Source: an uncultured bacterium
GTDB lineage: Bacteria > Oederibacteriota > Oederibacteriia > Oederibacteriales > Oederibacteriaceae
Reading direction: 5' to 3'
NCBI GenBank assembly: GCA_965112635.1
Contig: OZ218778.1
Span: forward strand, 576,001 to 640,000
Length of the DNA: 64,000 nt
Of the stretch, positions 14,265 to 48,770 are shown one piece after another (position 1 is the stretch's first letter; each line of letters begins with the position of its first letter). The notes below the pieces were generated by a model. It was not told where the DNA came from and made no database searches. It saw only the letters and a list, made by a program, of their open reading frames with translations. Position numbers and translations under genes: made by a program.

Positions 14265-14275
14265 AAGGAGTTTAA

Positions 14276-27866: not shown

Positions 27867-27953
27867 TAATCCGATAAATCCTGCTGCTGCTTCGAAACCC
27901 TTAAATGATAAAACTAAAACCTGCATTCCGCAATCCGAAATCCACGGAAGAAA

Positions 27954-28030
27954 TGGTGGGCGAAACCCGGATCGAACGGGTGACCTCCTGCTTGTAAGGC
28001 AGGCGCTCTAACCAGCTGAGCTATCCGCCC
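27954..28030 (-). tRNA. tRNA-Val(TAC)
   Basis: GGGCGGATAGCTCAGCTGGTTAGAGCGCCTGCCTTACAAGCAGG...GTTCGATCC...TTCGCCCACCA. Confidence 0.96.
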
Positions 28031-28075
28031 TCCAACTCCCAAATAAACAATCCCCTCCAATGCTTTTGGTGCGTC

Positions 28076-28492
28076 CTACCCAACCACCTGCAGGATGATC
28101 TCGCGGCTCCTGGGCCGGACGTCAAAATCAACGAAAATGATCTGCTGATAGGTCCCCAACAACAATTCCCCATGGACCAAAGGCACGCTCAAGGAGGGTC
28201 CCAGCAGGGACGCCCGGACATGGGAGTGCCCGTTGCCGTCGTCATAAGCCAAATGGTGGGCGTAATCGATGGACCGGGGCACCAGCCTCTCCCAAGCCTC
28301 CTGCAGGTCTTTGACCAGCCCCGGTTCAAATTCCAGGGTGGTCAATCCGCCGGTAGCGCCGGGCACAAAGATCGTGACTAGGCCGTCCTTGATCTTGGCT
28401 TTGGCCAGATTTTGCGCCACCTGAGGCGTTATGTCTATGACCTGCGTGTTTCCTTTTGTTTTAAATGCAAACTTGATCGTTTCTGCGCTCAT
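28076..28492 (-). CDS. yjbQ: YjbQ/UPF0047 family protein
   Basis: IDITP, GATGGLTTLEFEP, NGHSHVRASLLG, LGTYQQI.FVDFD. Confidence 0.9.
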   Translation of the reverse strand: MSAETIKFAFKTKGNTQVIDITPQVAQNLAKAKIKDGLVTIFVPGATGGLTTLEFEPGLVKDLQEAWERLVPRSIDYAHHLAYDDGNGHSHVRASLLGPSLSVPLVHGELLLGTYQQIIFVDFDVRPRSREIILQVVG

Positions 28493-28608
28493 GATCTCCT
28501 AACCGTACTTTTAAAACCCACGATTTAAAAAATAGGTGAAAGTCCCTTTTAGGAATAGGGAGAGATTATATCATAACCAGGGCAAGGTGTTGAACTGCAG
28601 GCGGGCCA

Positions 28609-31188
28609 TTAGTAATGCATGACAAGGCTGGTAAAGATCTCGGAAGCCTGGTAAGAAGCCGGGCTGTTCTGGAAATCCGTGTAGATCATGTCCATATATT
28701 GCAGGGTCAGGGTGGTGGTCCGCAGCCATTTCCAGGTCAATCCCACTCCAAAGGTCTGCTGGTCGATGTTCCAGAAGCAAGGCGTAAGGACCAATCCGTT
28801 GAGATTGCCCCCGATGGAATTGTACTGTTCATTGGCAATGATGCCGTAGGTGGCAATGCCTGGATAATCGCCGAAGATATATTCCGTCCCGCTTGAAGTT
28901 AGGTGCTGGACCCCGCCCAGAAGCACCAGGTCCTTCAAGATGGGGACTTCCAGACCCAAGTGCAAGATCTGCGTGGTCAGGCTCACCTGTGCCTGGTTGG
29001 TCGGGTCCACATCCGGAGCAGGGTTGTTGGTCGTATGTTCCGTGCGCAACCCTACCTGCACCGCGATGGGCACGGTGTATCTCAGCCAACTCTTATTTTC
29101 CAGCCTTAGCCCGAGCATCGTGTCGCTGAATGACCTGGGCGAAAGATGGTTGACGTCTGGCCCTTCGGTGGCCACCCTTTCCACGGCGTTCTCAACGGTT
29201 AGAAAAGGTTCATAGGCATAGGATTGTTCTTTATCGGTGTAATATTTTCCATGGTAGTTGAACACATAGGCGTTGCGGTTGGGTGTGGCCTCGCCGTAGG
29301 GCCGGAGATTGTTATAGATGATGCTGTAAGGCGTGAAACCCGGCACAAGGTAATTCACATAGGAGGGCTGGATCTGATAACCCAATTTGTTCCAGGGCAG
29401 GGTCAATTCCTCGGGGGTCATGTCCATGCAATATCCTGGAATGCCTAAAGCGGGGATGGAGGGCATCATGATGCCTCCGTAGGTGGAATTGCCTTGCAGC
29501 ATCTGGCCTGGCGCAAGATAACTAATGACGTTATACATGTTGGCAATATCCTCCCCGCTATAAGGGTTATTGCTCTGATTAAAGATCTGGAGCAAGGGGT
29601 CCCAGACCCTGGTTTGGGCCATGGGATTGTAATAAGCGGGCCCGACGCTACGGTAACTCCAATCCAGGATGGCTCCCATGGGCAGTTTAAAGGATGCCTT
29701 GCCCTCCCCGGCAAAATCCGTGAGATAAGCCTGGTATGTGGGTTCCGTATAAGTGGCTCTGAGGTTGGAGTCCAAGCCGCTTTCTACCCCTTCAAAAGAC
29801 AGGGTCACAAAATCATGTAAATTTACAGACGCCTCTCCGGAAGCGTCATAAAGGTCCCAGGGTTGGTAAGGAGGAGCAGGCACACCCAATGCAGGATTAG
29901 CAGCACCTGGAGGACCCGTGCCGGCTATGCTCCTCAAATCCTGGATACTGGTCCCTAAATGCAGCCACGGCAAAGGCTGGGATTGGGCTTTGCCCCCCAA
30001 AAGCCAGGTCCAATACTGATAGCTTATTGTCGGTGCAGCCCCAGCCGTAGTCGTAAGGCCGGGAGCGCCATTCGCGGGAATATTAAAGTAATACTGGGTC
30101 GCCCATTGCGTAGTTACATTGGGATTTTGCGCATACCAGATATTATCAAAAGAAAATGGCCCATTGGTGGAGTAAGAGCCAACGCTGTCTAGGAAAGGCT
30201 CAGCCATAACATCAACATCGATGTCATAGTCATTGAAAAATCTGAATGTGGTGCCTGCGGAAACCATATTGGTCAGGAACCGCTCATTATCTTTCACATG
30301 ACACACTTCCTTGTCGTAATCTTTATAAAGCCTGAAGATCTTTGCTTCCAGGGGGTCCAAGTCGTCGTCATCCGCAGCGAAAAGCGTCAAAGGAGTCCAT
30401 TTTTTCCACTGATCTCCGCCAGAAAAATAGATATTGTCCAGGTTGGCGTCAAAACGGATCTCCATGATTCCAAAACTCTGCGTGGGAGTGCCGTAGGCAA
30501 AAGTCGGGGAGCCCCAGGCTCCTCCCAATGAATTTATAAAACGGTCTATGAGCACGGCATCTACCCGGTCATTATGGAAATGGATGTTCATATCCAGGGT
30601 TTGTATAAAATCGTTATAGAGCGGAGAGGTCATGCCTATGGGAGTGGTGGTCAAAGCCAAAGCCTGTTGGTTGCCGCTGAGCTTGATGCCCTGATAGTTC
30701 ACGCCGTAATCCCCGCTGATCCGGATGCCCCAGAAATCACTAAGGTCCTGCTCTCTTTTTTCCAGGTCAGCCTCTTTGAGTTTCAAGGTGACCATCTGGT
30801 CCGAGAGGCTCTTGATGTCCTCCTTAAGGGCCATAAGGTCGTCCTGATAAGCCCGCGCCAGTTTATAGACTTGGTCCAGGTCCGCGGCCACAACACCCGC
30901 GTCCGGAGGGCTGGGGGGCTGGTCCTCATCCTCGCTCTTGAGCTGGGCCGTTTCCAGGGCTTCTCCGGTAAATCTGGCCAGGTCAGCCCTGGTCAAGACC
31001 TTGCCTGCCGGGAAAGGTGTTTTCAAGTAACCGTGGTCGCTGAGCCGCTCCAGAGCCCCATAGGACCAGTCCGTCAAAGGGACTGTATCGGACAAATCTG
31101 CAGGGTCAGTACTGGCCAGCAGGCCCGTGGGACAGAGCAGTATCCCCAAAAGCAACCCTAACCATAACCATGCTGTCTTTTTAGACAT
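28609..31188 (-). CDS. SLH-like + coiled-coil + large beta-barrel outer membrane protein, paralog 3
   Basis: Signal peptide; VPLTDWSYGALERLSDHGYL...LTRADLA; heptad segment; aromatic-rich beta strands; C-terminal Y. AAGGA RBS before ATG 31188. Confidence 0.7.
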   Translation of the reverse strand: MSKKTAWLWLGLLLGILLCPTGLLASTDPADLSDTVPLTDWSYGALERLSDHGYLKTPFPAGKVLTRADLARFTGEALETAQLKSEDEDQPPSPPDAGVVAADLDQVYKLARAYQDDLMALKEDIKSLSDQMVTLKLKEADLEKREQDLSDFWGIRISGDYGVNYQGIKLSGNQQALALTTTPIGMTSPLYNDFIQTLDMNIHFHNDRVDAVLIDRFINSLGGAWGSPTFAYGTPTQSFGIMEIRFDANLDNIYFSGGDQWKKWTPLTLFAADDDDLDPLEAKIFRLYKDYDKEVCHVKDNERFLTNMVSAGTTFRFFNDYDIDVDVMAEPFLDSVGSYSTNGPFSFDNIWYAQNPNVTTQWATQYYFNIPANGAPGLTTTAGAAPTISYQYWTWLLGGKAQSQPLPWLHLGTSIQDLRSIAGTGPPGAANPALGVPAPPYQPWDLYDASGEASVNLHDFVTLSFEGVESGLDSNLRATYTEPTYQAYLTDFAGEGKASFKLPMGAILDWSYRSVGPAYYNPMAQTRVWDPLLQIFNQSNNPYSGEDIANMYNVISYLAPGQMLQGNSTYGGIMMPSIPALGIPGYCMDMTPEELTLPWNKLGYQIQPSYVNYLVPGFTPYSIIYNNLRPYGEATPNRNAYVFNYHGKYYTDKEQSYAYEPFLTVENAVERVATEGPDVNHLSPRSFSDTMLGLRLENKSWLRYTVPIAVQVGLRTEHTTNNPAPDVDPTNQAQVSLTTQILHLGLEVPILKDLVLLGGVQHLTSSGTEYIFGDYPGIATYGIIANEQYNSIGGNLNGLVLTPCFWNIDQQTFGVGLTWKWLRTTTLTLQYMDMIYTDFQNSPASYQASEIFTSLVMHY

Positions 31189-31202
31189 GCCAGGTTCCTT
31201 TT

Positions 31203-33497
31203 TTAGAAAGTGATAGACCATTTGATGTTATACTCCTCAGCTGAATAATCATTGAGCATGGTAGCCTGGTCTTCGTATTTATCCATCTGCCATCCTAAAG
31301 CCAGGATGGAGTGGTCGGAATTCAGGACATTGCAGACAAAACCCAGCCCAAAGATCTCTTCTCTGGCGTCGTAATTATTTAAGTACAGATACTGGTGGGT
31401 CAACCCATAACCTAAACTGTTAAAAAGCCCCTGCGGGCCCACGATATCATATCTGGACAGGGCACCAGCCCCGGGTAAACCTCCAGGGTAGGTCAGGGTA
31501 TACTCCCGGCCGTAGCCGTTGATGGTCTTATAGGCTGCCAGCAGCTTTAGCCCTTCGTACAGAAAACTCAGGCCGTAATTGATCTCTCCGCTCCAGGTAA
31601 TGGTCCTCAGGTCCACGTCGCCGGGAAGCCCATCCGTGGTGTATTCCTGTTTCCAGCCCCCGGTAAGGATCACAGGCAGGGGGATGGGATATTTTTCCTT
31701 GCTTTTGGTCAGGTCCAGGGATAGACCGTCAGTCTGTACCCAAAAATGCCTCTGGGTCAGCTGGTTCAAACTCGGTCCTTCGGTGGCCCAGATCTCCTGG
31801 TAATTATCCATCCGGACATAAGGGTTGAAGAAACCCCCGAAATAACCTCCCTGCCACTGGCAGGTCATCCCCTGGCGGTTGGGTGTGGCCGGGCCATAGG
31901 GGAAAGTATTGTTCATTAAAACGTTGTAATAGTCATAGCCTGTCCAGGTCCTGCGGTCATAATGCGGGTAACCGGGAAAGGTGGTCGGCATATTGTCGTA
32001 GGAATAATCCGGCCGATACACCTGGTTCTGGGAAAAGATCGGGACATCGGGCAAAAAGGAGTTACCGTTGACATCGACCAGCCCCAGACTCGACTCGTTG
32101 ATCCCCGCATCATAGATCCTGGATTGTGCAAAAAAATTATAGTATTCCGGGCCCACGCTGGAATAACTCGCCGTGATAGTGCCGGGGCTGGGGAAGATGC
32201 TGACCGCAGTGGTCATGGCGTTGTCGATGAGCAGACCCTCGGGATAAACATTGGGACTGGTTTGGTTGACGTCCATATTGAGGGTGCTCAGCGCGGCTTC
32301 ATGGGTGATCTCGACAGCCTGCCCCAGCTTTAGTTTAAGGTCACCGCTCAGGATCCATTCGTCTTTGCGGCTGACAGCCATAGGCCGGGTCAAGTCAAAA
32401 GCATTGACCGGCAGCAGGATATCGGGGCCGGTATCACTGGCGTCCCAGGACGAAATAAAGGATGACCCCCAGTGCAGGAGCGGAGACGCGTCTCCTTCGG
32501 CCCGCCCCACATAAACCCACGGTTCCACATAGAGCAGTGTTTGGGTGGAACTATCCTGGTCAAAAAAGTTATTGATCATGCCCAGCCGCGCTATCATCGA
32601 GGTGAGGCCCACGGGATAGGAGTCAAAAATTTTCAAGGTGGATTTCCCTTCCAGGCCGGTCAAGGGCAGATTGTGGTCTTTAAGACCCAGTTGCATCTTT
32701 AGGTCCGCCACTTTCCTGCTGAACCATAAGGGTTCCAGGGGGTAATAGTCGTCGTCGTCCTCGTAACCGGCCATCAGGGGGCTGAGCTTAAAAGAAATAT
32801 CTCCGGCCCAGAACTGACCGTAGGGGGTTTCCATATTGGCCCGCATGGCGCTGAGGTCGACCTGGGTGATGTCATTGCTGTTATGGTAATAAGAAAGCGC
32901 CCTCATCTCTATTTCCGCCGAACCATAAGGGCTCCGGCAGACGGTGTCCAGGTCAAAATAGTTCCGGATATCCCGGGTAAGCTCCACGGCCGGAGCTCCG
33001 GAATACGGCACAGGCAGGGCGTAACCGTACATCTGCATCTGGTCGAATCCTGTCCAGAAATCCCCGCCGATATAGACCGGCATCTGTTCGGCAAAGAACT
33101 TCTCCTGGTTCTGTTCCAGCTGGGTCTGTTTCTGGCGCAGAGAGACCAGCTGGTCCGCGATCTTGTCCAGCTTGGCGCCCAGGTTGACCATCTCCTCCTC
33201 GTATTCACGGACCAGCTTGTATATCTTGTCCCAGTCCATGGCCGTGGCAGCCGGGCTTTGCGCCGGGTTGGAGGCGGACTGCACGGCTTGGGCCACCCAG
33301 AGGGCCATTTCCCGGGAGCTGTAGGAGGACTTGTCCGGCAAGGGCCCTTTTAAAAAACCCTTTTGGGCCAGGTCCTTGAGGGCCTGGACCGACCAGTCGC
33401 TGTCAGGCACGCTGTCCGGCCTAGCAGCCCATACAAGAGGTCCGCCCAGCCAGGTGCATAATAAAATAATTAGAATCGTGTTCAGGTTTCGTTTCAC
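31203..33497 (-). CDS. SLH-like + coiled-coil + large beta-barrel outer membrane protein, paralog 2
   Basis: Signal peptide; VPDSDWSVQALKDLAQKGFL; IYKLVREYEEEM coil; ends YNIKWSITF (BAM beta-signal-like). Confidence 0.7.
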   Translation of the reverse strand: MKRNLNTILIILLCTWLGGPLVWAARPDSVPDSDWSVQALKDLAQKGFLKGPLPDKSSYSSREMALWVAQAVQSASNPAQSPAATAMDWDKIYKLVREYEEEMVNLGAKLDKIADQLVSLRQKQTQLEQNQEKFFAEQMPVYIGGDFWTGFDQMQMYGYALPVPYSGAPAVELTRDIRNYFDLDTVCRSPYGSAEIEMRALSYYHNSNDITQVDLSAMRANMETPYGQFWAGDISFKLSPLMAGYEDDDDYYPLEPLWFSRKVADLKMQLGLKDHNLPLTGLEGKSTLKIFDSYPVGLTSMIARLGMINNFFDQDSSTQTLLYVEPWVYVGRAEGDASPLLHWGSSFISSWDASDTGPDILLPVNAFDLTRPMAVSRKDEWILSGDLKLKLGQAVEITHEAALSTLNMDVNQTSPNVYPEGLLIDNAMTTAVSIFPSPGTITASYSSVGPEYYNFFAQSRIYDAGINESSLGLVDVNGNSFLPDVPIFSQNQVYRPDYSYDNMPTTFPGYPHYDRRTWTGYDYYNVLMNNTFPYGPATPNRQGMTCQWQGGYFGGFFNPYVRMDNYQEIWATEGPSLNQLTQRHFWVQTDGLSLDLTKSKEKYPIPLPVILTGGWKQEYTTDGLPGDVDLRTITWSGEINYGLSFLYEGLKLLAAYKTINGYGREYTLTYPGGLPGAGALSRYDIVGPQGLFNSLGYGLTHQYLYLNNYDAREEIFGLGFVCNVLNSDHSILALGWQMDKYEDQATMLNDYSAEEYNIKWSITF

Positions 33498-33505
33498 TCA
33501 GGCTC

Positions 33506-36025
33506 CTAAAAGCTATAACTGGATCTTATTTCAGTGGTCACGATACCATTACTAATATCTTCTTCGGGGTGCGTGGCATCATTGCTCGTTATATATTGAT
33601 AGCGGACTGTCAGGATCGTATAACGCATCAAGTCCAGGTCCAGCCCGACATCGGCCGTGGTGACAAGATAATTCAGGGGGTCCAGAGCGTAGGTCGAATT
33701 GGGGCCGTTAAGTTGTGTGATATACAAGTTATAGGCTGAGCGGATGGTTTCGGCCCCGTAACCGACGCAGATGCTGAGCGGGTCGAACAGGTTATAGACG
33801 ATCATAGAGTTAACATAACCGTGGGTCATCCAGGCGCCCGCATCCGTGGCCGGAACGAACTGGAACTCCTTGGTCGTGCTTTGCAGGATACCGCTGATCC
33901 AAAAATAAGTGACCCGGGGTATGGGCAGGAACTTGCTGAGGATGGTCCTGAAATCTCCGCTTAAGGTCGTGTAATACGGCCCGCACCATTGGGTCGGGTC
34001 CTGCATCGCGGGATCATTGATAGGTATGGCAAAGTCATTCTCGCCCCAGGCCACGCTGGTAAAATAATGATAGGGTGGCGCCATCGTTAGAGGAAACGTC
34101 GGACCGCCTATATTGGAAATTTGGCTGGGAAAGGTCCCCAGAAAGACAGGCGCGGTGATGAAATCAGAGACCCATTTCAAATTATGGGAAGAGCAATAAT
34201 TGACTTGCATGATGGAAGCGGGGATGCGCTTGGGCGCCAGCAGCAAGTCAAACCCTTCCCGGTTAGTCGACCATTCCATGGGTTCGTTGCACCAGTTCAC
34301 TACGGGACACCCGCCTCCCATTTCGTACATCAACCAGAAAGGGATATTGTCCCTCAAAGCGTAGTTAGTACCACTACCGGAATTATCCCAAAAATTAAAG
34401 AGCCCTCCCTGCACGACTCCGGAGTATTGTTTGCCCGGCATGTTACCGACCCACGATTCGCTCCCGGGAGGGGCATACTCAGGCCCGATCCTGTAGTAAT
34501 CCCCCTTCATCCATACCATGTTGAGGAGCGGCACGCCTTTGAAGGTGTCCGAAAACTCCATTCTGAGGGCGTTATCCACCACAGGCACATTGACCAAATT
34601 GGTGATATGAGAAGACGACCACCATAACCCCTGGTTTTCCATGCTGCTCAGGTTGGAGATGGCATATTCCATATCCACGTCCATGCCGCCTAGATAGGGA
34701 ACATCCTTGGCCATGCGAGTGGTCCATTGCAGGCTCCTGGCGCTGCAATTAAAAACAGCGGTGCCGTTGTTCCTGTTCTCCGAAGGGTCAGAGGCTTCAT
34801 CCTCGGCGTTGAAAGCGTAGGTCGAGGAAGTGGCCGGGTCCGGCACGTCAAAATGCATGGCGAATAGATTATTTTCGGGTTGGTTGTGGCTAGGCGAGCT
34901 GTAGGAGCGGAACCGGTTGACGTAAAAGACCATTTCGGAATTATAGGGCAGCGAACCATTGGTCAACTTGAGGCCTGATAAGGACTGCTGGGGCGCTCCA
35001 AAAGGCGAAAGCTGGGTGAAAACAGTGTTCCACTCGGTCCGGTTATCAGGGGGTATGTTGTTAAATTGCTCAAAAGGAAGGACATGGCGTCCTTCGCTGG
35101 AAGCATTGTTATTATACATCGTCAAAGGGCTGATATAACCCCGGCAGTCCACCCCTGCCTCCACCCGGGTGCCCCAAAGCGCGCTTTCAGCCCGCAGGGT
35201 GGCCGGAAGCGGCACCGGGAAAGAGCCTCCTAGCGTGGGGATGGCGTTACCGGCGGCATCCACCCCGCCCCCCAGGTTCAGGGTGTAAACATTGTCAATG
35301 CGGTAATCCAGGCCCACGCCCACATTTTGGGCGCCATACCCTAAGGTGAACTGGTTCCCCAATGGACTCCCGGTTCCAGAATAAATCTGCATATTGGCAG
35401 GGAAGCTGCCTTCTTGGCGGCCATACCAGGCCCCATCCCACCGGTTACCCAGACCTGTGTAGGTTACGTTCTGGGCCAGGGCGATATAGCTTCCCTTGAG
35501 GTTGCTTTCAATATCGTTGAATTCTTTGAGGTCGCTGTCGATCTCGGCGCTCCGCTGGGTGATCTCCCCCTTTTTCGCTTGGACCTTATCCTCCATATCT
35601 TTAAGCTCGCTGCGGAACTCGGTGAACAGCCTGTCCAGGTTGTTCAACTCCGTTTGGGTGATCATGACCTGGGAATTCGTCTGGGCCTCATAACCAGCCT
35701 GGGCCACGTAAAAAGCCGCGTCAGTACGGCTCAACGGCTCCTCGGCATAGGGGAAATTCTTCAACTCCTCCTGGGGCACCTGGATAAGTCCGGAGACGGC
35801 CAAGTCATGCAGGGCCTTTAAGGACCAGTGGTCCGCGGGCAGATAAGCCGTAGACCCGGCCAGGAACAAAGGGTTGAGGGCCAGGTAAAAAAGAGGGATC
35901 AATAAAAGAGCGGCAAAAAGGGGGGTTTTAAAATTATTAAAAATGGATAAGGTAAAAAACCGGAACAACCGCAGGACAACCCGTAAAAAAACAGTGAAAT
36001 CCACTTCTCCCTTTCCATATTCCAT
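33506..36025 (-). CDS. SLH-like + coiled-coil + large beta-barrel outer membrane protein, paralog 1 (start uncertain)
   Basis: LPADHWSLKALHDLAVSGLI...LSRTDAA; LDRLFTEFRSELKDM coil; ends EIRSSYSF. Confidence 0.68.
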   Translation of the reverse strand: MEYGKGEVDFTVFLRVVLRLFRFFTLSIFNNFKTPLFAALLLIPLFYLALNPLFLAGSTAYLPADHWSLKALHDLAVSGLIQVPQEELKNFPYAEEPLSRTDAAFYVAQAGYEAQTNSQVMITQTELNNLDRLFTEFRSELKDMEDKVQAKKGEITQRSAEIDSDLKEFNDIESNLKGSYIALAQNVTYTGLGNRWDGAWYGRQEGSFPANMQIYSGTGSPLGNQFTLGYGAQNVGVGLDYRIDNVYTLNLGGGVDAAGNAIPTLGGSFPVPLPATLRAESALWGTRVEAGVDCRGYISPLTMYNNNASSEGRHVLPFEQFNNIPPDNRTEWNTVFTQLSPFGAPQQSLSGLKLTNGSLPYNSEMVFYVNRFRSYSSPSHNQPENNLFAMHFDVPDPATSSTYAFNAEDEASDPSENRNNGTAVFNCSARSLQWTTRMAKDVPYLGGMDVDMEYAISNLSSMENQGLWWSSSHITNLVNVPVVDNALRMEFSDTFKGVPLLNMVWMKGDYYRIGPEYAPPGSESWVGNMPGKQYSGVVQGGLFNFWDNSGSGTNYALRDNIPFWLMYEMGGGCPVVNWCNEPMEWSTNREGFDLLLAPKRIPASIMQVNYCSSHNLKWVSDFITAPVFLGTFPSQISNIGGPTFPLTMAPPYHYFTSVAWGENDFAIPINDPAMQDPTQWCGPYYTTLSGDFRTILSKFLPIPRVTYFWISGILQSTTKEFQFVPATDAGAWMTHGYVNSMIVYNLFDPLSICVGYGAETIRSAYNLYITQLNGPNSTYALDPLNYLVTTADVGLDLDLMRYTILTVRYQYITSNDATHPEEDISNGIVTTEIRSSYSF

Positions 36026-36082
36026 ATCCAGCAGTTTTCTTTCCTTGGCGAAAAAATGAGTATGTACGGTCTGTGATCCGGA

Positions 36083-36838
36083 TTAATTAATGTACCAATC
36101 GTCCAAATAGATCGTTTCCACGACACCGGGCGCGCCGACAAATTTGATCCTGCCCACACAATCAAGATCCACGGCGGGATTACCCGACCCGGGAATAAAA
36201 AGCGTGAGCGGCACCCTGACTTCCTGCCACCCCTTGGTGATGCCCCCCGAGGGCGGCAGGAAATAGGCACCCATAACAGGGATGTAATTGGACTGGTTCT
36301 CGCCGGGGGTGAGGTCGTTGACACGCATGGAGATGCTTTCTCCCCCATTCTGACCCTTGACCCAGAAATCCATATAACCATGGTTGGACAAGGTTATCCC
36401 GTTCCCCTGGGGAGTATTGCACTGTCCAAAGGACGGCAGGTTGCAATAACCGGAGAACTGTAACTCGCAATCACCGGTCGTGGAATCAAAAACGATCTTG
36501 AGGCAGGTGCTGTTGTTATGGCCTGCTGGAGGGCCGACCTCAGCGAATGAGGAAAGCGGTCCGGGACTGCCGATAAAGATAGGGGGGCTGTTAAAAACCC
36601 ACAAGGGAACATCGCTGGCGTCGCATCCGAAACCTTCACCGTTATAAACAATAAAAGGTGGCGCATAAGGAAGCGGGGTGCTGGTCGGCGTGGGAGCATA
36701 CCCTATACTCGCAGCCGAAGGCAGCTGCGATGTAGAAGGGTGGGAACAGGCCGTCATCAGCCAAAAGACGGCCAATACCATGACAAATATAAGCCCTATC
36801 ATAAAAGTTGGTTTTAAAACCGTTGGTTTCATATTCAT
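36083..36838 (-). CDS. Lipoprotein with P/T linker and CBM11/CIA30-like beta-sandwich domain
   Basis: Lipobox MTAC; PTPTSTP; MDFWVKG, WQEVRVPLTLF, VDLDCVGRIKF, IYLDDW. Confidence 0.65.
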   Translation of the reverse strand: MNMKPTVLKPTFMIGLIFVMVLAVFWLMTACSHPSTSQLPSAASIGYAPTPTSTPLPYAPPFIVYNGEGFGCDASDVPLWVFNSPPIFIGSPGPLSSFAEVGPPAGHNNSTCLKIVFDSTTGDCELQFSGYCNLPSFGQCNTPQGNGITLSNHGYMDFWVKGQNGGESISMRVNDLTPGENQSNYIPVMGAYFLPPSGGITKGWQEVRVPLTLFIPGSGNPAVDLDCVGRIKFVGAPGVVETIYLDDWYIN

Positions 36839-36859
36839 TCTCCTTTCATTTTCAAGCTA

Positions 36860-36886
36860 ATTATAGCATAAATAATAAAATTGCAA
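36860..36886 (-). promoter_or_regulatory. Putative extended -10 promoter for the lipoprotein + three barrel genes
   Basis: Minus strand reads TTGCAA-15 bp-TATAAT with TGC immediately before the -10, then GAAAGGAG RBS; very AT-rich. Confidence 0.5.
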
Positions 36887-36984
36887 TTTTTCAAGAAAAA
36901 AACCTGTTTTAATGAACCCTGCAACCTATATCATCATAATCTATCCATAAATCCACAATAAAGTTACACAAAAATCCAAAAAAT

Positions 36985-37614
36985 TCATTGGAAATAAATA
37001 TTATCCACCCACAGAGTATTGTCTTTTTGATTGCTGGGTAGCTCAAAGCCGACACTATCCACCTTTTGCAGCTTTTCCATGCCTTGGGGCACAGGCAATT
37101 CCGGCGCAAATTGGTCAAGGAAGATCTGGTATAACCACCACCGGCCCATGCCCTGCTGCGGAGGGGAAACAAAGGGATATACTTTATTGTCTAGGTGGGT
37201 ATTGAGCTGGACCTTGAAAGCCAGGGAGTCCTGAGCCTTGACCCACAGGATGATCATCTTGTCGGATTGGACATCCAGACCCTTTCCTTGATAAGGCGAG
37301 GTTTCAGCCGCCCCGCAGCCCCAACCCTTGCCGAACTTATAATCTATTTTCCCGCAATATTTCCCCAACTTGGCGCCCTGTTGGACCACTGTAAAACTAC
37401 AGCTGCTGCCGTTGGCCGCATCCCCCCACGTCCAGCCGCCGCTGCCCAGAACTCCCGTTTCAAAATCGTCGTAAAGCACTGCCTGGGGAGAAAGTTGGAC
37501 ATTTTGTTGCACCCCTAGGCTTCCACCGCAGCCGGTCAAAACGGCCGTCAACAGGAAAAACAAGAGACCCGCAAGCAGGTTTTGGCCGCGGGTATGGCCT
37601 TTCCAGCGCTCCAA
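36985..37614 (-). CDS. Lipoprotein with CBM11-like domain
   Basis: AGGAG then TTG 37614; lipobox LTGC; YDDFE, WTWGD, KIDY..GWG, ILWVK, LWVDNIYF. Confidence 0.65.
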   Translation of the reverse strand: MERWKGHTRGQNLLAGLLFFLLTAVLTGCGGSLGVQQNVQLSPQAVLYDDFETGVLGSGGWTWGDAANGSSCSFTVVQQGAKLGKYCGKIDYKFGKGWGCGAAETSPYQGKGLDVQSDKMIILWVKAQDSLAFKVQLNTHLDNKVYPFVSPPQQGMGRWWLYQIFLDQFAPELPVPQGMEKLQKVDSVGFELPSNQKDNTLWVDNIYFQ

Positions 37615-37738
37615 TAACGATCTCCTGAATGGGCTGTGCCCGGCACCTTTGATCAATTCCGGAACAGCTGAAAGTTTAAGCGTTAGAAATTGATTCAAGT
37701 TTTTTCCTTTTGCGGGTCTGCGGCGGTTGAAAAGGGTG

Positions 37739-38440
37739 TTACCAGGTCCCGGTCACTTGATCCATGAAAATGGGCCCGGTCAAAGCCTCTTTGGAGTTGA
37801 AGACCAGGATGAATTTCCAGGCGTCCCTGAGCTCGTCTTGCGAAATATCAAAAACCAGGTGGTTCACGCCTTCGGACTTGAGGACCGTCTTATGCACGGC
37901 CCAGTTATTGACCGGTCCGCTGCTGATAAAGTTGACTTCGACCTCTTTGTTGAGTCCCAGGACGCCCGCTGGAATGTAAAGGTCAAGGCTGATCTGTTTA
38001 ATTTTATAAAGCTCCTGATAGTAGGCCAGCTGCGAAGGCACCACCCAGGCCAGGTCTTCATTCCATCCTCTGGCGCCTTTGGTGTCGATCTTGAGGCATC
38101 CCTTGCCCTCGGTAGGATGTTCCTCGGAATAGGAAACCTTGCCCTGCCAACCCTCAGTGTCAAAACTGTTGAACCCATAAAGCAGGAAGTTATTCTTGCC
38201 CTGTTGCATGGCTATGGTGAAAGATTCTTCGACTGTCCTCGGTACCCTTGTCGGATATGGCGTAGGGGTATCGGTAGGGATCGGGGTTGGGGTATCCGTG
38301 TTGGTATAGGTTTCCGTCGGGGTAGAGGAAGGTGTTTCTAAATGCTTATTGACCAACTGGACATAGCTGCAACTGGAAAAGATCAGCGCTGCGACAAAGA
38401 ACGGGATCAATAAAAACAGCCAAAAACGGATGGCCTTCAA
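37739..38440 (-). CDS. Lipoprotein with Thr/Pro linker and galactose-binding-like domain
   Basis: Lipobox FSSC; TPTETYTNTDTPTPIPTDTPTP; SFDTEGW, TEGKGCLKI, ISLDLYIP, IFMDQV. Confidence 0.6.
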   Translation of the reverse strand: MKAIRFWLFLLIPFFVAALIFSSCSYVQLVNKHLETPSSTPTETYTNTDTPTPIPTDTPTPYPTRVPRTVEESFTIAMQQGKNNFLLYGFNSFDTEGWQGKVSYSEEHPTEGKGCLKIDTKGARGWNEDLAWVVPSQLAYYQELYKIKQISLDLYIPAGVLGLNKEVEVNFISSGPVNNWAVHKTVLKSEGVNHLVFDISQDELRDAWKFILVFNSKEALTGPIFMDQVTGTW

Positions 38441-38533
38441 GCGCTTTCCCTTCTGTTCTCAGGTTAATGAATAACTCAAAAATCCAACGCTTCATGTATC
38501 TTACTCAAGCTGGATAACCCTGTCAAGGCAGCG

Positions 38534-39037
38534 TCATTTACCCTTTTGCGCCAGAAGATTCTCTACTTCCTGGCTAAATGTCGCCTCATCGGTGTAGCCG
38601 ATATATTTATTGACGATACGGCCCTGGCGGTCGATCAAAAAGGTCGTGGGGATCCCCCGGATGCCGCCGTAGGTCACCGTGACCTGCTCGTTGCCTATGA
38701 CCAGCGGGTAGTTGATCCTGGCCTTTTCGGCAAAATCTCGGACATGCGCCGCGTCATCCAGGGCCACCCCGACGATAAGCACCCCTTTGTCTTTGTATTT
38801 CCGGGCTAGTTTGATGTAGGAGGGGATCTCTTTGACGCAGGGCGGACACCAGGTGGCCCAAAAATCTAGGATGACGACCTTGTCTTTGGTCTGGCTGGCG
38901 AAATTAAAATCCTTGCCGGCCGGGTCCTTCAAAGTAAAATCCGGAGCCGTGGTGACCTTGGGGCTGGCTGGCTGGCATCCCCACAGGCCAAAAGCTATCC
39001 CTAAAACCAGAAGACCTTCTGCAAATTTTCTATTCAC
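38534..39037 (-). CDS. TlpA/ResA family thiol-disulfide oxidoreductase lipoprotein
   Basis: Lipobox LWGC, APDFTL, FWATWCPPC, GIPTTFLIDR. Confidence 0.93.
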   Translation of the reverse strand: MNRKFAEGLLVLGIAFGLWGCQPASPKVTTAPDFTLKDPAGKDFNFASQTKDKVVILDFWATWCPPCVKEIPSYIKLARKYKDKGVLIVGVALDDAAHVRDFAEKARINYPLVIGNEQVTVTYGGIRGIPTTFLIDRQGRIVNKYIGYTDEATFSQEVENLLAQKGK

Positions 39038-39063
39038 GTCTTCCCCCTCCTATCACAGGTTAG

Positions 39064-39807
39064 TTACTGAAAAATTGCCGGTAAAAAATTTAGATATCGA
39101 GACACCGCCTGCAGCTGGTCGAAAAAGATCAATACCCCGGCTATGACCAGCAACCCGCCGCTGGTCACCTCTATGAACCGCATCCACTTTTTGGCCCGAG
39201 TCAGCCATTTCAAAAAATAACCGGCTCCTAATGAGATCAAAATAAAGGGCAGGCCCAGTCCAGCCGAATACGCCGTGAGCAAGATGATCCCCCGGCCTAC
39301 CGTGACCTCAGTGCTGGCCAGGGCCAGGATGCTCCCCAGGATGGGGCCGATGCACGGCGACCAGCTGAAGGCAAAAGCCAGCCCCAGCAAAAAAGAGAAA
39401 AGCAGTCCCGTCTTGCCGCTGGCGACCTGGAACCTTTTCTGGTAATAGAGGAAATTGAACCAGGAAATTTTTTTAAAGGCTCCGGCCAGGTAAAGCCCGA
39501 AAAAAACTATCAGAACCCCCGCTATCCTGTTGATGAGAAGTTTGTTCTGGAATAAAAACTGGCCTAAAAAAGTTGCCGTGGCTCCCAAAAGGATGAAGAC
39601 CAGCGAGGTCCCCAGCACGAAAAACAGGCTGTTGAGCAGTATTTTGGCGTGGCTGGAAGCACCCTGTTCTCCGCTGGAAAGCTCAGCCACCGACAGGCCC
39701 GATAAGTAAGAAAGGTAGGCCGGCACCAGGGGCATCACGCAAGGAGACAAAAAAGAAAAAAAGCCCGCGATAAAAGCCAGGGTAACGGAAACATTTTGAG
39801 GGGCCAT
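39064..39807 (-). CDS. ccdA: CcdA (DsbD transmembrane domain) disulfide reducer
   Basis: SFLSPCVMPLVP and WSPCIGPILG; six TMs. Confidence 0.93.
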   Translation of the reverse strand: MAPQNVSVTLAFIAGFFSFLSPCVMPLVPAYLSYLSGLSVAELSSGEQGASSHAKILLNSLFFVLGTSLVFILLGATATFLGQFLFQNKLLINRIAGVLIVFFGLYLAGAFKKISWFNFLYYQKRFQVASGKTGLLFSFLLGLAFAFSWSPCIGPILGSILALASTEVTVGRGIILLTAYSAGLGLPFILISLGAGYFLKWLTRAKKWMRFIEVTSGGLLVIAGVLIFFDQLQAVSRYLNFLPAIFQ

Positions 39808-39897
39808 GGTTCCTGCCTTGTGTTTAGGGTTTCATCTAGTTTTCAAACTGATATTCATATTAGCAATCCCGGCAGAAAAATCAAAGCCTCAAGCGTC

Positions 39898-39926
39898 TTG
39901 GCATCTCCAAAAGCGCGTGTTATGAT
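39898..39926 (+). promoter_or_regulatory. Putative sigma70 promoter of the SIS/PfkB operon
   Basis: TTGGCA-17 bp-TATGAT with extended TG. Confidence 0.55.
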
Positions 39927-39932
39927 AACTCG

Positions 39933-40098
39933 CTGTTGAAAGAACCTAATAAAGAGTCCATGAACAGCGTGTTACACGAGCTCATGCTCGCACGTCTTCA
40001 AAGACGCGCGCTTGAGCGTGTGCTTGAGCATGTGACATACGCACCTCGCCCTCAAGGTGCGCGTCCATGAGGACGTGAGGGCGTTTGCGGTGTTGTAA
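39933..40098 (+). ncRNA. Candidate structured leader/attenuator with 36-aa uORF (39960-40070)
   Basis: Several complementary segments, including CATGCTC/GAGCATG, CGCACCT/AGGTGCG, CGTCC/GGACG and CGCCCTCA/TGAGGGCG. No match to a family I recognise. Confidence 0.35.
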
Positions 40099-40126
40099 AT
40101 TCTGCTATCAAAGGAAGGTTCAGCTT

Positions 40127-41158
40127 ATGGAATCCGTTACTCTAAGAGAGATCCTCAACCAGCCGGACATCTGGGCGCAGGAAATTATCTGTTCCCGGAA
40201 AGAAAAATGGTCCATCCCTCCTGCTGGAATGGGTCGCTGCACGGTCATTTTCGTGGGCTGCGGCACTTCTTATTATCTGGCGCAGTCCGCGGCCGCGGCC
40301 TACACCCGCCTGACCCGGCGTCCCAGCCGGGCGGTGCCGGGCTCAGAGGTTTTCCTGAATCCCAAGGACAATTTTTCTCCCCAGGAAAAGCTTTTGGCCG
40401 TGCCTATTTCCCGTTCCGGCACCACCACGGAAACCGTATGGGCCGCCCAGTATTTCCGCAAAAAGATGCATGTCCCTGTCCTTTCCATCACCTGCTACCC
40501 TGACAGCGCCCTGGCCAAAGCGGGCAACTGGAAGATTACGCTCCCCTATGTGCAGGAAAAAAGCGTGGTCATGACCGGCTCCTTTAGCTCGCAGCTTTTG
40601 GCCGTGGTGCTTGCCGCGGACCCCCAGATGGCCTTCAAGCTCAAGGGCCTGCCCCGCCAGGGCGAAAAACTCCTGACCCTTTACCAGCCCCTCATCCAGG
40701 CGCTGAGCAAAAATCCTAAAAAGTTCGACCACTTCGTTTTTTGCGGCCAGGGGCTTTTTTACGGCATCGCCAACGAAGCCATGCTCAAGATGAAAGAAAT
40801 GACCCTGTCCTTTTCCGAGGCCTACCACGCCCTGGAATACCGCCACGGCCCCAAAAGCATTGTCACCAAGAAAACCCTGCTCACGGTGTTCCTGACGGAA
40901 ACAGGGATGAAGCAGGAGATCCGGTTCTTGAGCGACATGAAAAAATTGGGGGCCCGCACACTGGTCATGGCCCCTGCGGCCACCAAGGAGATCAAGCGTC
41001 ACGCGGATTATTTGATCGAGCTGGGCACGACCGTGCCCGAGCCAGGCCGGATGTTCCTGGCCATTGCCCTGGTCCAGCTTTTCGGATATTACCGCGCGAT
41101 GGCCAAAGGCATCAATCCCGACTCCCCCAAAAACCTGACCCAAGTGGTCCATTTGTAG
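40127..41158 (+). CDS. Double-SIS sugar-phosphate isomerase/deaminase (AgaS/FrlB/GlmD-like), no glutaminase domain
   Basis: EILNQP, GCGTSYY, ISRSGTTTET, EKSVVMTGSF, EAMLKMKE, EYRHGP, NPDSPKNLTQVV. Confidence 0.9.
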   Translation: MESVTLREILNQPDIWAQEIICSRKEKWSIPPAGMGRCTVIFVGCGTSYYLAQSAAAAYTRLTRRPSRAVPGSEVFLNPKDNFSPQEKLLAVPISRSGTTTETVWAAQYFRKKMHVPVLSITCYPDSALAKAGNWKITLPYVQEKSVVMTGSFSSQLLAVVLAADPQMAFKLKGLPRQGEKLLTLYQPLIQALSKNPKKFDHFVFCGQGLFYGIANEAMLKMKEMTLSFSEAYHALEYRHGPKSIVTKKTLLTVFLTETGMKQEIRFLSDMKKLGARTLVMAPAATKEIKRHADYLIELGTTVPEPGRMFLAIALVQLFGYYRAMAKGINPDSPKNLTQVVHL

Positions 41159-41162
41159 AACT

Positions 41163-42095
41163 ATGAAAAAACTAGACCTTTTGGTGGTCGGCGAACTCAA
41201 CTGCGACCTTATTTTGGACAAACTCCAGGAGTTCCCCAAGCTGGGCAAAGAGCAGCTAAGCGACTCCATGTCCTTGACCCTAGGAAGTTCGTCCGCCATT
41301 TTTGCCAGCAACGCCTCTGCCCTGGGCCTTAAAACCGCTTTTACCGGCAAGCTGGGCCAGGATATGCTGGGTGACCTGGTGATGTCCAGCCTGAAAAAAA
41401 GAAAAGTGGACACCAGCCGTATTAGCCGCCAGCACCGTTACAATACCGGGATCTCCGTTCATCTAAATTTTAATGCTGACCGGGCCATCCTGACCTACAA
41501 AGGACCCATGGATGATTTCCGGTTTTCCGACCTGGATTGGAATTTCATAAAAACCGCCCGCCACTTGCACCTTTCTTCCTATTACCTGCAAAAAGGTCTG
41601 CAGCCGGGCTGTCCTGCTCTTTTTAAAAAAGCCAAAACCCTCGGCCTTTCCACTTCCCTGGACACTAATTGGGACCCGGAAGATAAATGGGGCAATAAAA
41701 TTTATAAGGTGCTGCCGTATGTGGATATTTTTATGCCCAATGAGAATGAAGCTTTACGCCTGGCCCGTGCCTCTTCCCTCAAACACGCCATGGCCATCCT
41801 CTCCCGCTACGCGGGAATGGTCGTGGTCAAATGCGGCAAAAAAGGCGCTCTTGTCCAACAAGGTCATAAGACCTATCACCACCCTGGCATCAGGGTAAAA
41901 GCCGTCGACCCGGTAGGCGCTGGTGACAGTTTTGACGCGGGTTTTATCACGAAATTCTTAAAGGGCGGTTCTTTGGAAGAATGCTTGATATTTGGTAATG
42001 TTTGCGGGGCTTTTTCCACCACCTGCCCCGGCGGCACGGCGGCATTCGACAATATATCCAAATTCTGGTCTTTTGCTAAAAACCATACCCGTTAA
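41163..42095 (+). CDS. PfkB family carbohydrate kinase
   Basis: VVGELNCD, GKLGQD..G, FMPNENE, DPVGAGDSFDAG. Confidence 0.92.
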   Translation: MKKLDLLVVGELNCDLILDKLQEFPKLGKEQLSDSMSLTLGSSSAIFASNASALGLKTAFTGKLGQDMLGDLVMSSLKKRKVDTSRISRQHRYNTGISVHLNFNADRAILTYKGPMDDFRFSDLDWNFIKTARHLHLSSYYLQKGLQPGCPALFKKAKTLGLSTSLDTNWDPEDKWGNKIYKVLPYVDIFMPNENEALRLARASSLKHAMAILSRYAGMVVVKCGKKGALVQQGHKTYHHPGIRVKAVDPVGAGDSFDAGFITKFLKGGSLEECLIFGNVCGAFSTTCPGGTAAFDNISKFWSFAKNHTR

Positions 42096-43860: not shown

Positions 43861-44817
43861 TTAGTACAAGAAATAGACGGACAAACGCTCCATATCAGGG
43901 ATATTGCTGTCAGCTTCGATGGACTCGCTGAAGTCAAAACCAAAAGAAAATGGCTTGTCGTGTACCCTCACTCCGATGCCGTAGGTAAAAGCCGGGGTTT
44001 CCTGCTTGAAGCGGTACCCGAATCTGGCCCCGAGGGTGTCCTTGAGCCAGTATTCCGCTCCCAGGGCTTCGTAAAAAAAGCCGTCGCTGGGCTGTACGCC
44101 GTCCGCGGAAATCATAAAATTATACACATCATTATGGAGGATACGGTCAGAGATACCAACTCTGTAGGTGACAGGCATGTTCTCCGCCAGGGAAATAAAG
44201 GTCATAGGCAGGCCCAAATTTTGGATCGCCGCCCCTATCTTAAGATCCGGCAGGCCTTGCGGGACAAAGAGAGTACCCAGGTCCACGGCTTCCCCCTGGG
44301 CTTTACTATCGCCCAATTGTCTGCTGATGTATTTGGCGCCCGCTCCCCAGAACCATTCCGAGGTAAAACTGGAACCATAGGCCAGGTCCACCGCCAGGTC
44401 ATTGGCAGAAAAAATAGTTCCGCTGTTTCCATCAGGGTCGCTGGCCGTGGTGACCAGCAAGCCGGTCATCCATAGATAGTTCACGCTGAGGCCGACTGTT
44501 CCCATGCCCCCCAAAGATTGGGCCATAGCAAAATATTCCTGGGAAACATCCGGAGACAGTTGGGTATGCATGAAATTGATCTCGTTTTTGGCCAGAGTGG
44601 CCAGACCGGCGGTATTGTAATAAATGGTATCAACGCTGTCCGCCACGCCGGTAAAAGCCCCCGCCATGCTGTTGGGTTTGGCTCCGATCGGCACGGTCAA
44701 GAAAGAAGCGCCCGTTTGTCCGGTGCCATGGCCCAGGCCCGGTAACAGGCTGAGGACGGATAAAAGCACAAACCCTGCGAACCATGAACGATGCTTCAAT
44801 TTGATCTCCTTGGTCAT
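43861..44817 (-). CDS. PorV/PorQ-like (FadL superfamily) outer membrane beta-barrel
   Basis: GASFLTVPIGAKPNSMAGAFTGVADSVDTIYYNTAGLA, the family's FL...GAR..aMG..a.aDD....wNPAGL N-terminus; AVDLG, IQNLG; C-terminal aromatic residue. Confidence 0.8.
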   Translation of the reverse strand: MTKEIKLKHRSWFAGFVLLSVLSLLPGLGHGTGQTGASFLTVPIGAKPNSMAGAFTGVADSVDTIYYNTAGLATLAKNEINFMHTQLSPDVSQEYFAMAQSLGGMGTVGLSVNYLWMTGLLVTTASDPDGNSGTIFSANDLAVDLAYGSSFTSEWFWGAGAKYISRQLGDSKAQGEAVDLGTLFVPQGLPDLKIGAAIQNLGLPMTFISLAENMPVTYRVGISDRILHNDVYNFMISADGVQPSDGFFYEALGAEYWLKDTLGARFGYRFKQETPAFTYGIGVRVHDKPFSFGFDFSESIEADSNIPDMERLSVYFLY

Positions 44818-45338
44818 CTGATCAGCACGATCCTGCGAACGGATCTATTCCCCTCGCTTTGGATCACGCAAAAATAAACCCCCGAGACCACATAGTTATG
44901 GCCGGTATCGCAAAAATACCATTGGCAGGAATTATTGACGATGTCAGAACTGGAAAAAGAAAACACTTTGTCCCAGCCGAGGGTGTATATCTGCACGGAC
45001 CCGTCAGAGGGCACCTTGTCGATCGTGACATAACTCGCCCCGGCCTGGAAATTCTTGACCACATTGGGATAGACCCTGGCGTTGACCACAGAAGGCGTGG
45101 TCGTCGAGGTAGGTGTTTCCGTCGCTGTGTAAGTACACGACCCAGTGCAGCCGCAAGTTGGGGTTTCCGTGGCAGTTTCAGTAGAGGTGAGAGTAGCAGT
45201 TTCCGTGGCTGTCTCCGTTGGAGTATTCGTCATGGTGGCGGTTGAGGTGCTCTGGGCATGGACCGGATTTCCAAAGTGCAAGCATATCCCGAGAATGAAA
45301 CATGTTAGAATCAACTTCACCAGGGAATTTCTCAACAA
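44814..45338 (-). CDS. Secreted Thr-rich protein with T9SS-CTD/FlgD-Ig-like C-terminal domain
   Basis: Signal peptide ending VHA; TETATETAT repeats; VYPN...VQIYT...W...SGVYFCVI...RRIVLIR. Confidence 0.7.
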   Translation of the reverse strand: MLRNSLVKLILTCFILGICLHFGNPVHAQSTSTATMTNTPTETATETATLTSTETATETPTCGCTGSCTYTATETPTSTTTPSVVNARVYPNVVKNFQAGASYVTIDKVPSDGSVQIYTLGWDKVFSFSSSDIVNNSCQWYFCDTGHNYVVSGVYFCVIQSEGNRSVRRIVLIR

Positions 45339-48735: not shown

Positions 48736-48770
48736 GGCCCGAAACACCCCATTATAAGGAGGGCGGGGGA

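Follow-up and report, generated by a model that had tools for sequence, protein, structure and literature searches.

The locus described here comprises six co-oriented open reading frames (ORFs) on the minus strand at positions 28609–38440 of a 64,000-nucleotide stretch of contig OZ218778.1 from an uncultured bacterium of the Oederibacteriota; "the window" refers to that whole stretch. In the order of transcription, three lipoprotein genes (LP3, LP2, and LP1) are followed by three genes for large proteins (B3, B2, and B1), each combining an SLH-like domain and coiled coil with a C-terminal region predicted to form an outer-membrane barrel. The barrels are of two types, A (B3) and B (B2 and the second copy B1, or B'), such that the arrangement can be written as LP3-LP2-LP1-A-B-B'. 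An earlier examination of the same DNA without database searches (the sequence-only reading) had reported three large co-oriented genes after three lipoprotein genes on the same strand, and the ORF list agrees. The features and their positions in the window are as follows.

37739–38440, minus strand: LP3, a lipoprotein of 233 amino acids (aa) with lipobox FSSC, a Pro/Thr linker, and a C-terminal beta-sandwich domain resembling a carbohydrate-binding module (CBM)
36985–37698, minus strand: LP2, a lipoprotein of 237 aa with lipobox LTGC at Cys57 and a CBM11/CBM30-like domain
36083–36838, minus strand: LP1, a lipoprotein of 251 aa with lipobox LMTAC, a Pro/Thr/Ser linker, and a CBM30-type domain
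33506–36025, minus strand: B3, 839 aa (start codon uncertain), an A-type protein with SLH-like domain, coiled coil, and barrel, of the upstream-partner family and putatively of the CHU_1276 type
31203–33497, minus strand: B2, 764 aa, a B-type (CHU_1277-family) barrel with SLH-like domain and coiled coil
33270–33416, minus strand: SLH-like domain of B2 (residues 28–76), in the part of the family profile that matches OmpM1
33087–33242, minus strand: predicted coiled-coil stalk of B2 (residues 86–137), seen as helices in an AlphaFold2 (AF2) model
31875–31901, minus strand: PYGPATPNR motif of the B-type barrel (B2 residues 533–541), checked by translation
28609–31221, minus strand: B1, an ORF of 870 aa, the second copy (B') of the B-type barrel, likewise with SLH-like domain and coiled coil

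The B3-B2 and B2-B1 gaps are no longer than about 14 nucleotides, and the three large genes are therefore almost certainly co-transcribed. Promoter and terminator scans of 27900–40200 did not rise above shuffled sequences (15 versus 10.8 ± 3.8 and 15 versus 14.7 ± 3.5, respectively); given these counts, no weight is placed on a −35/−10-like site at 38526–38498, upstream of LP3. The database copy of B1 (P0002) has 859 aa and starts at Met12, which puts the probable B1 start at 31188, and the true start of LP2 is probably internal to its ORF. The translations of B1 and B2 have hydrophobic N-termini, and all three large proteins end with an aromatic residue (VMHY in B1, SITF in B2, and SYSF, as part of SSYSF, in B3). 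Lipobox-like cysteines are present in the three small proteins (LMTAC, LTGC, and FSSC), and the Pro/Thr-rich linkers that the sequence-only reading had assigned to two of them are found in LP1 and LP3.

B1 and B2 are full-length paralogs (25% identity, E 6e-45). The BLASTP similarity of B3 to these two proteins is confined to the N-terminal 130–240 residues, and the B3 family profile (A5) and the B1/B2 family profile can be aligned across 650 columns (99.7%, E 2.3e-26). No Pfam or NCBIfam family was found for B1, B2, or B3, and NCBIfam gave none for 13 related barrels either. The SLH assignment was made because the family profiles match the N-terminus of OmpM1 from Veillonella parvula, which is described as a trimeric porin and wall tether and is represented by the PDB entries 8BYM, 8BYS, and 8BZ2 (PMC10628300). 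For the B1/B2 family (A2), positions 4–120 of the profile match 8bys (E 1.7e-10), 8bym (1.6e-8), and 8bz2 (4.6e-7). For the B3 family, A5 matches 8bys at E 1.2e-14 and the stalk entry 8bz2 at 4.7e-13, together with a weak match to the SLH domains of Sap (0.008). The Pfam SLH model (PF00395), on the other hand, was unmatched at E <= 1, and the SLH domain of these proteins is therefore a divergent one. Thus, the SLH block named in the sequence-only reading stands by comparison with OmpM1, but not by the Pfam model. The PDB match stops at profile position 120, short of the barrel.

The barrel assignment was examined with an AF2 model of B2 built from the 26-sequence alignment A2 (predicted local distance difference test [pLDDT] 75.6, predicted TM-score 0.70). 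The model has helices at residues 35–76 and 86–137, followed by 23 strand segments in residues 141–763, and the coil helices (86–98, 100–105, and 110–137) run straight into the strand at 141. On this basis, the C-terminal region of B2 is read as a beta-barrel of about 22–24 strands, whereas a barrel fold of B3 is inferred from homology. All of the listed Foldseek hits of B2 in the PDB are outer-membrane barrels, including ushers, OprD/Occ proteins, a chitoporin, MtrB, TonB-dependent transporters, and SlpA. The TM-scores are only 0.2–0.35, and therefore no specific structural relative can be named. Together with the OmpM1 matches, the model and these hits support the SLH-coil-barrel architecture that had been proposed from the sequence alone. 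The same reading described the barrels as much larger than that of OmpM. This holds for OmpM1, which has an OmpF-like barrel of 16 strands; however, large SLH-barrels are not unprecedented, since OmpM-like barrels are reported to span 16–30 strands (PMC10628300).

The closest characterized relatives of the barrels were found in the cellulose degrader Cytophaga hutchinsonii. In this species, the genes chu_1276–chu_1280 form what is described as an "atypical" polysaccharide utilization locus (PUL), in which cellulose use depends on two outer-membrane proteins and a SusC/SusD pair is lacking (PMC12016534). CHU_1277 has been tied to cellooligosaccharide assimilation and called a porin (PMC5553014). 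A Cytophagaceae member of the family (L022) retrieves the 603-aa protein P0257 of C. hutchinsonii (E 2.2e-140, 44% identity). When A2 was compared by hhalign with an 18-sequence CHU_1277 alignment (A4) that has P0257 as its first row, the two profiles aligned over 504 columns (100%, E 7.5e-59), spanning residues 170–764 of B2 and 68–603 of CHU_1277; BLASTP of B2 against P0257 gave E 3e-8. As judged by these alignments, the homology of B1 and B2 to CHU_1277 extends across the entire barrel. The conserved segments in common with CHU_1277 are GD..KLTPLTLW..DD..PFE and NN..PYGxATPNRxG, which, as a speculation, may mark a candidate constriction or binding site. Within the latter, PYGPATPNR is invariant in A2 and conserved in the CHU_1277 family, and a degenerate DNA pattern for it occurs twice in the window (in B1 at 29276–29301 and in B2) versus zero times in 100 shuffles. 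PDB sequence search detected no solved structure of a CHU_1277-type barrel; the only match of the CHU_1277-family profile was a weak one to OprF (2.8e-4). For B3, the A5 profile aligns with that of the Bacteroidota barrel encoded just upstream of CHU_1277-like genes (A6; 99.8%, E 1.3e-27, 443 columns), making B3 a putative member of the CHU_1276 family. NCBI labels some family members as "CHU_1277 family cellulose-binding protein," and neither NCBIfam release 20.0 nor Pfam has a family for the scanned Bacteroidota B-type barrels (L009, L010, L012, and L035). In a Cytophagales chromosome (L010, 6507–8882), an A-type barrel carries an N-terminal CBM_4_9 domain (E 1.4e-15) in place of the SLH-like domain and coil.

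Conservation of the gene neighborhood was assessed by scanning one genome per species for the motif PYGx[AS]TPNR[QN]. Among 249 pattern matches, 89 were confirmed as relatives with a 7-sequence alignment, and the best 80 of these were kept, giving 73 loci in which ORFs were called and classed by four family profiles. B-type ORFs were found in 69 of the 73 loci and A-type ORFs in 67, with the A-type ORF directly upstream of the B-type ORF in 63. Moreover, 55 of the 68 loci having downstream ORFs contain a lipobox ORF of <460 aa among the next three downstream of the barrels. Because only the B motif was used to find the loci, the A-B and lipoprotein associations are independent observations. 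The association of barrels with lipoproteins, which had been proposed from the window sequence, is thus conserved in other genomes. By architecture, 42 loci are of a Bacteroidota type that lacks the SLH-like domain and coil, 29 are of an SLH type, and two are unclassified. The SLH-type loci come from FCPU426, Goldiibacteriota, Firestonebacteria, metagenome-assembled genomes (MAGs) labeled Spirochaetia, and others.

The gene content of these loci differs by type. All 14 two-barrel loci of the SLH type contain a glycoside hydrolase (GH) or carbohydrate-binding domain, and 11 of the 14 contain a GH catalytic domain (families GH9, GH8, GH5, GH26, GH2, GH31, GH29, and GH20); CBM9 and CBM11 proteins, ABC solute-binding proteins, LacI regulators, and GalK/GalT are also found. 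Hydrolases are present in three of the four Bacteroidota loci scanned by Pfam (GH9/GH3/GH5, GH3/GH16/GH2, and GH87, respectively), and phmmer with two queries found GH9 or GH3 homologs in at least 14 of the 42 Bacteroidota loci. Of 14 FCPU426-type loci, 11 have three adjacent barrel genes; in two others (L042 and L048), A and B are separated by small ORFs, and one (L067) is partial. Nine loci of the FCPU426/Firestonebacteria type with A, B, and B' barrels (L042, L048, L050, L056, L061, L065, L067, L070, and L027) share a conserved position directly upstream of lepA-lepB-hemN-hrcA-grpE-dnaK. In non-Bacteroidota MAGs, proteins with a type IX sorting domain (Por_Secre_tail) were observed near barrel loci (L013, 3–3173; L042, 12211–15039; L015, 6691–7647), in one case with a PorP/SprF-like protein.

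The barrels are distant from these relatives: the genome of the window is absent from the 73 loci, and the best identity there is 25–29%. The relatives found suggest a placement near FCPU426/Goldiibacteriota and Firestonebacteria. A word-index search with B2 returned only B2 itself among 7,997 scored candidates. When 1.84 billion representatives were searched exhaustively with a profile, 181 proteins reached E <= 1e-3 and 18 reached E <= 1e-10. When Pfam was run on 54 of the 150 listed hits of the latter search, 13 had a true SLH domain at the aligned N-terminus, four had Porin_O_P above the cut-off, and four had OMP_b-brl below it. The closest relative of B1 is P0003 (42% identity over 711 columns). 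As a lead only, the nearest ESM Atlas clusters of B1 are SLH-bearing proteins of 840–870 aa, and its neighbors there include SLH-barrel clusters of Vulcanimicrobiota and Armatimonadota. In a quick, midpoint-rooted tree with support from the Shimodaira–Hasegawa-like approximate likelihood ratio test (SH-aLRT) only, B1, P0003, and B2 form one clade (95) within the B proteins of the two-barrel type (97), whereas the B and B' proteins of FCPU426 form a separate clade (100). Therefore, the second B copy seems to have arisen at least twice independently. Such a repeated origin would fit a stalk of three chains.

The three lipoproteins are CBM-like to different degrees. LP1 matches Pfam CBM30 at residues 152–228 (E 1.1e-7, 32.4 bits versus a cut-off of 27). 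Weak hhalign matches link it to the LP2 family (72%, E 3.4e-5) and the A11 family of Bacteroidota lipoproteins (51%, E 1.6e-4), and it has no homolog in the fetched loci. LP2 has 15 homologs beside barrel genes in the loci (phmmer), one of which (L001:14160–14849) matches Pfam CBM_11 at 30.8 bits versus a cut-off of 27. The LP2 family also aligns with the lipoprotein that Bacteroidota encode at the position of CHU_1279, namely with its first domain (hhalign 96%, E 4.2e-9, 193 columns). As a further lead only, the nearest ESM Atlas clusters of LP2 are CBM30/SGBP_B_XBD and CBM_11 (scores 0.91–0.93). In C. hutchinsonii, CHU_1278 and CHU_1279 are described as two proteins resembling surface glycan-binding protein (SGBP) B, of which CHU_1279 binds cellulose and has a C-terminal domain similar to CBM11 (PMC12016534). 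A Cytophagaceae lipoprotein used as the query for CHU_1279 gave 20 hits, none of which is from C. hutchinsonii. The putative link to CHU_1279 rests on gene position, on one Bacteroidota lipoprotein at that position (L035) that carries Pfam CBM30 and SGBP_B_XBD, and on the published description. In the AF2 model of LP3 (nine sequences), residues 100–233 form a domain at pLDDT of about 60–86. Its best Foldseek hits are CBM27 structures (1oh4 and 1pmj; E 2.5e-6, TM-score to the target 0.52), followed by CBM22, CBM4, CBM11, and CBM29. The same module recurs at about aa 640–857 of three GH9 enzymes (L013, L016, and L019), and homologous lipoproteins lie beside barrels in L006, L008, L025, and L071. 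Taken together, the sequence matches and models suggest that the lipoproteins are CBM-like (CBM30 for LP1, CBM11-related for LP2, and a CBM27/22-like fold for LP3), as the sequence-only reading had anticipated, and may bind glycans.

Directly after the B-type gene, Bacteroidota loci have a conserved lipoprotein of about 320–420 aa without a Pfam family (e.g., L009, 10639–11793). This lipoprotein has 43–46 phmmer hits among the locus proteins and occupies the place of CHU_1278; a search for a counterpart in the window found none.

Our preferred interpretation, to which we give a probability of roughly 60%, is that the six genes encode an outer-membrane module for glycan capture and uptake, of the type of the chu_1276–1280 atypical PUL and mounted on a wall tether of the OmpM type. 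The A-type barrel B3 and the two CHU_1277-family barrels B2 and B1, each with about 22–24 strands, would reside in the outer membrane. Their periplasmic SLH-like domains and coiled-coil stalks would fasten the barrels, and thereby the outer membrane, to the wall, as OmpM does. The CBM-like beta-sandwich domains of the three lipoproteins may retain a polymer of the beta-glucan type, or oligosaccharides, on the cell surface, and the oligosaccharides would pass through the barrels into the periplasm. Because a plug domain is lacking, this passage would be independent of TonB. Beyond the gene order, homologies, predicted folds, and conserved neighborhoods described above, we infer the surface exposure of the lipoproteins, the substrate, the passive nature of transport, wall binding, and any A-B-B' complex. 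The idea of a PUL analog, which the sequence-only reading had put forward, gains from the homology of the barrels to CHU_1277 and from the GH genes in related two-barrel loci.

Several observations weigh against this interpretation. In a Pfam scan of the window ORFs, no GH adjoins the locus and none lies within 21 kb; the nearest is a GH94 gene (4717–7164), 21 kb away past recG, mreB, two tRNA genes, and other housekeeping genes. The sequence-only reading had connected the locus with this phosphorylase, and that tie is weak. The distance and the intervening housekeeping genes rule out GH94 as a member of the locus, while a link at the pathway level is possible. Housekeeping genes also flank the six genes themselves, and the lipoproteins are upstream of the barrels in the window, whereas they are mostly downstream elsewhere. 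Among the FCPU426-type loci, 9 of 14 adjoin lepA-lepB-hemN-hrcA-grpE-dnaK and only 3 of 14 (L025, L030, and L071) have a GH within the fetched flanks. Thus, the three-barrel form may be a constitutive part of the envelope that also has an uptake function built in, a reading partly compatible with the proposed module. With regard to the individual proteins, B2 has low Foldseek scores, and its count of about 22–24 strands is an estimate from the strand segments of the model. B3 was equated with CHU_1276 by gene position in the literature only. LP2 and LP3 themselves have no Pfam hit, PDB sequence profile searches with LP1, the LP2 family, and the LP3 family gave nothing below E 0.07, and the LP3 model has a low overall confidence (pLDDT 61.8).

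The main rival explanation is that the three proteins serve chiefly as a constitutive tether between the outer membrane and the wall and as general diffusion porins, with accessory lipoproteins and no dedicated glycan specificity. We regard this possibility as unlikely, though by no means negligible. The N-termini match the OmpM1 stalk, and OmpM itself is reported to be both a tether and a general porin (PMC10628300). The housekeeping flanks of the window locus point in the same direction, as does the conserved core-genome position of the nine FCPU426-type loci, which fits a constitutive component as well as a substrate-specific PUL. However, the barrel is homologous to CHU_1277 and not detectably to the OmpM1 barrel, and CBM-like lipoproteins accompany the barrels even in loci with a housekeeping context. 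Moreover, the Bacteroidota homologs, which have no tether domain, keep the A-B-lipoprotein-GH layout. This explanation overlaps with the proposed uptake module rather than excluding it.

Alternatively, the barrels may be machines for the export or surface display of the neighboring lipoproteins, hydrolases, or a polymer, rather than sugar importers. The lipoprotein genes do adjoin the barrel genes, and loss of CHU_1276 or CHU_1277 in C. hutchinsonii is reported to lower cell-associated beta-glucosidase activity (PMC5553014). In addition, CHU_1279 has been suggested to stabilize or assemble a larger complex (PMC12016534). Ushers and alginate-export barrels are among the Foldseek hits of B2, and the alginate-export family is represented by one ESM Atlas cluster (a lead only); however, the Foldseek matches are generic at such TM-scores. 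Furthermore, the loci contain no polysaccharide synthesis genes, and the title of a reference cited in PMC12016534 ties CHU_1276 to glucose uptake. We therefore consider an export role improbable. Finally, it is very improbable that the barrels are energized TonB-dependent-like transporters, i.e., distant SusC analogs with an unrecognizable plug: a structure prediction of CHU_1276 is reported to retrieve TonB-dependent transporters (PMC12016534), PirA and FecA rank 32 and 43 among the Foldseek hits of B2, and the conserved B2 region 449–540 (mostly of low pLDDT and including the PYGxATPNR motif) could occupy the lumen, but none of the window and related barrels scanned matches Plug or TonB_dep_Rec, the N-terminal SLH-like domain and coiled coil of the B2 model lead straight into the first strand, and TonB, ExbB, and ExbD are absent from the window ORFs scanned. 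Plug, TonB_dep_Rec, and SusD families were likewise found neither in the six proteins nor in 49 other window ORFs scanned, in agreement with the sequence-only reading, which had seen no TonB-dependent receptor in the window.

If the uptake module is accepted, its distribution is of broader interest. It has long been an open question how C. hutchinsonii and bacteria like it take up the products of cellulose without SusC/SusD. The single paper found on the distribution of chu_1276–1280 reports this cluster in two close relatives (PMC12016534). Barrel pairs with lipoproteins and hydrolases were found here in 42 Bacteroidota-type loci and, with an OmpM-like anchor, in 29 loci from FCPU426, Goldiibacteriota, Firestonebacteria, and other MAGs, which suggests that uptake of this type is far more widespread than reported. 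Both components are already known, namely the OmpM tether and the atypical PUL of C. hutchinsonii. A literature search, with most subscription journals and supplements outside its scope, found no description of the tether-barrel fusion, the three-barrel form, or the spread of the A/B pair. The findings link the field of glycan uptake with that of outer-membrane tethering, offer conserved motifs and a basis of comparison from which targets for experiments can be chosen, and provide a candidate uptake route for cellulolytic candidate phyla. In this regard, Goldbacteria, which by 16S belong to the FCPU426 cluster, have been captured on cellulose; one of their genomes is reported to have 24 CBM11 copies together with GH5, GH8, GH9, and GH44 genes (PMC7031533); these observations fit the proposed role. 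More tentatively, giant A/B barrels with CBM lipoproteins might constitute a second, TonB-independent paradigm of polysaccharide utilization across phyla (Bacteroidota, FCPU426/Goldiibacteriota, Firestonebacteria, and related lineages). In the lineages other than Bacteroidota, fusion of the importer to an OmpM-type staple would let the same molecule act as tether and importer, and the three-gene form would be a 1:1:1 A-B-B' heterotrimer on a single three-stranded stalk. We hold this extended proposal to be doubtful at present.

Other features of the window are noted here for context. The locus is flanked upstream by genes for a TlpA-like thioredoxin and CcdA and downstream by UPF0047, tRNA-Val, tRNA-Asp, mreB, and recG. 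The nearest sugar-metabolism genes encode SIS-domain and PfkB-kinase proteins (40085–42095, opposite strand), 1.6 kb past LP3 and beyond the thioredoxin/CcdA genes. The GH94 gene is located between two URO-D-like genes (3626–4696 and 8194–9192), together with a GFO/IDH/MocA oxidoreductase gene (7152–8189); this set of neighbors (3626–9192) is unusual for a cellobiose/chitobiose-type phosphorylase. Five plus-strand genes at 11524–16193 encode the domains Proton_antipo_M, NADHdh, Oxidored_q6, Complex1_30kDa, and Complex1_49kDa/NiFeSe, and this module resembles a membrane-bound, energy-converting [NiFe] hydrogenase-like complex. A signaling cluster at 46753–52184 includes a fused HATPase_c_2-HAMP-SpoIIE protein and an adjacent STAS protein (partner-switching type), followed by an HD-domain response regulator and a CHASE3-PAS histidine kinase. 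ORFs of 639, 537, 318, and 174 aa (17864–19783, 55989–57602, and 43861–45338) have no Pfam family at E <= 1e-5.

Among known systems, the chu_1276–1280 cluster is one of the closest. The B-type barrels of the window, B1 and B2, are homologous to CHU_1277 across the barrel, including the PYGxATPNR motif, and the A-type barrel gene is directly upstream of the B-type gene, as in the Bacteroidota loci. Lipoproteins with CBM11/CBM30-like domains are encoded next to the barrels, with the LP2 family homologous to the lipoprotein at the CHU_1279 position, and neither system has a SusC/SusD pair. However, the window proteins add an N-terminal SLH-like domain and coiled coil that are lacking in all 42 Bacteroidota-type loci, there are three barrels rather than two, and sequence identity is only about 18–27%. 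The window lipoproteins are single-domain proteins of 230–250 aa encoded upstream, and the window cluster has no GH9 or other hydrolase, whereas chu_1280 is described as an endoglucanase gene (GH9) (PMC12016534).

With OmpM, the window proteins share an N-terminal SLH domain and stalk that are homologous by profile and precede a C-terminal outer-membrane barrel, and by analogy a dual role as wall tether and uptake channel would be expected. However, their barrel is predicted to have about 22–24 strands, belongs to the CHU_1277 family, and has no sequence match to the OmpM1 barrel, and their SLH-like domains do not match the Pfam SLH model. SlpA of Deinococcus radiodurans (8AGD and 7ZGX) likewise has a very large barrel that follows an SLH domain and a long coiled coil, and it appears at ranks 33 and 40 of the Foldseek hits of B2, but with a TM-score of only about 0.2 and no barrel sequence homology found. 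SlpA is not known to be paired with CBM lipoproteins. Finally, canonical PULs with SusC/SusD resemble the present system in combining a barrel with surface glycan-binding lipoproteins, and the related loci cluster with hydrolases, regulators, and inner-membrane transport genes. In contrast to such PULs, the A/B barrel system does without a TonB-dependent receptor, plug, or SusD, uses two or three paralogous barrels rather than one, and occurs also outside Bacteroidota.

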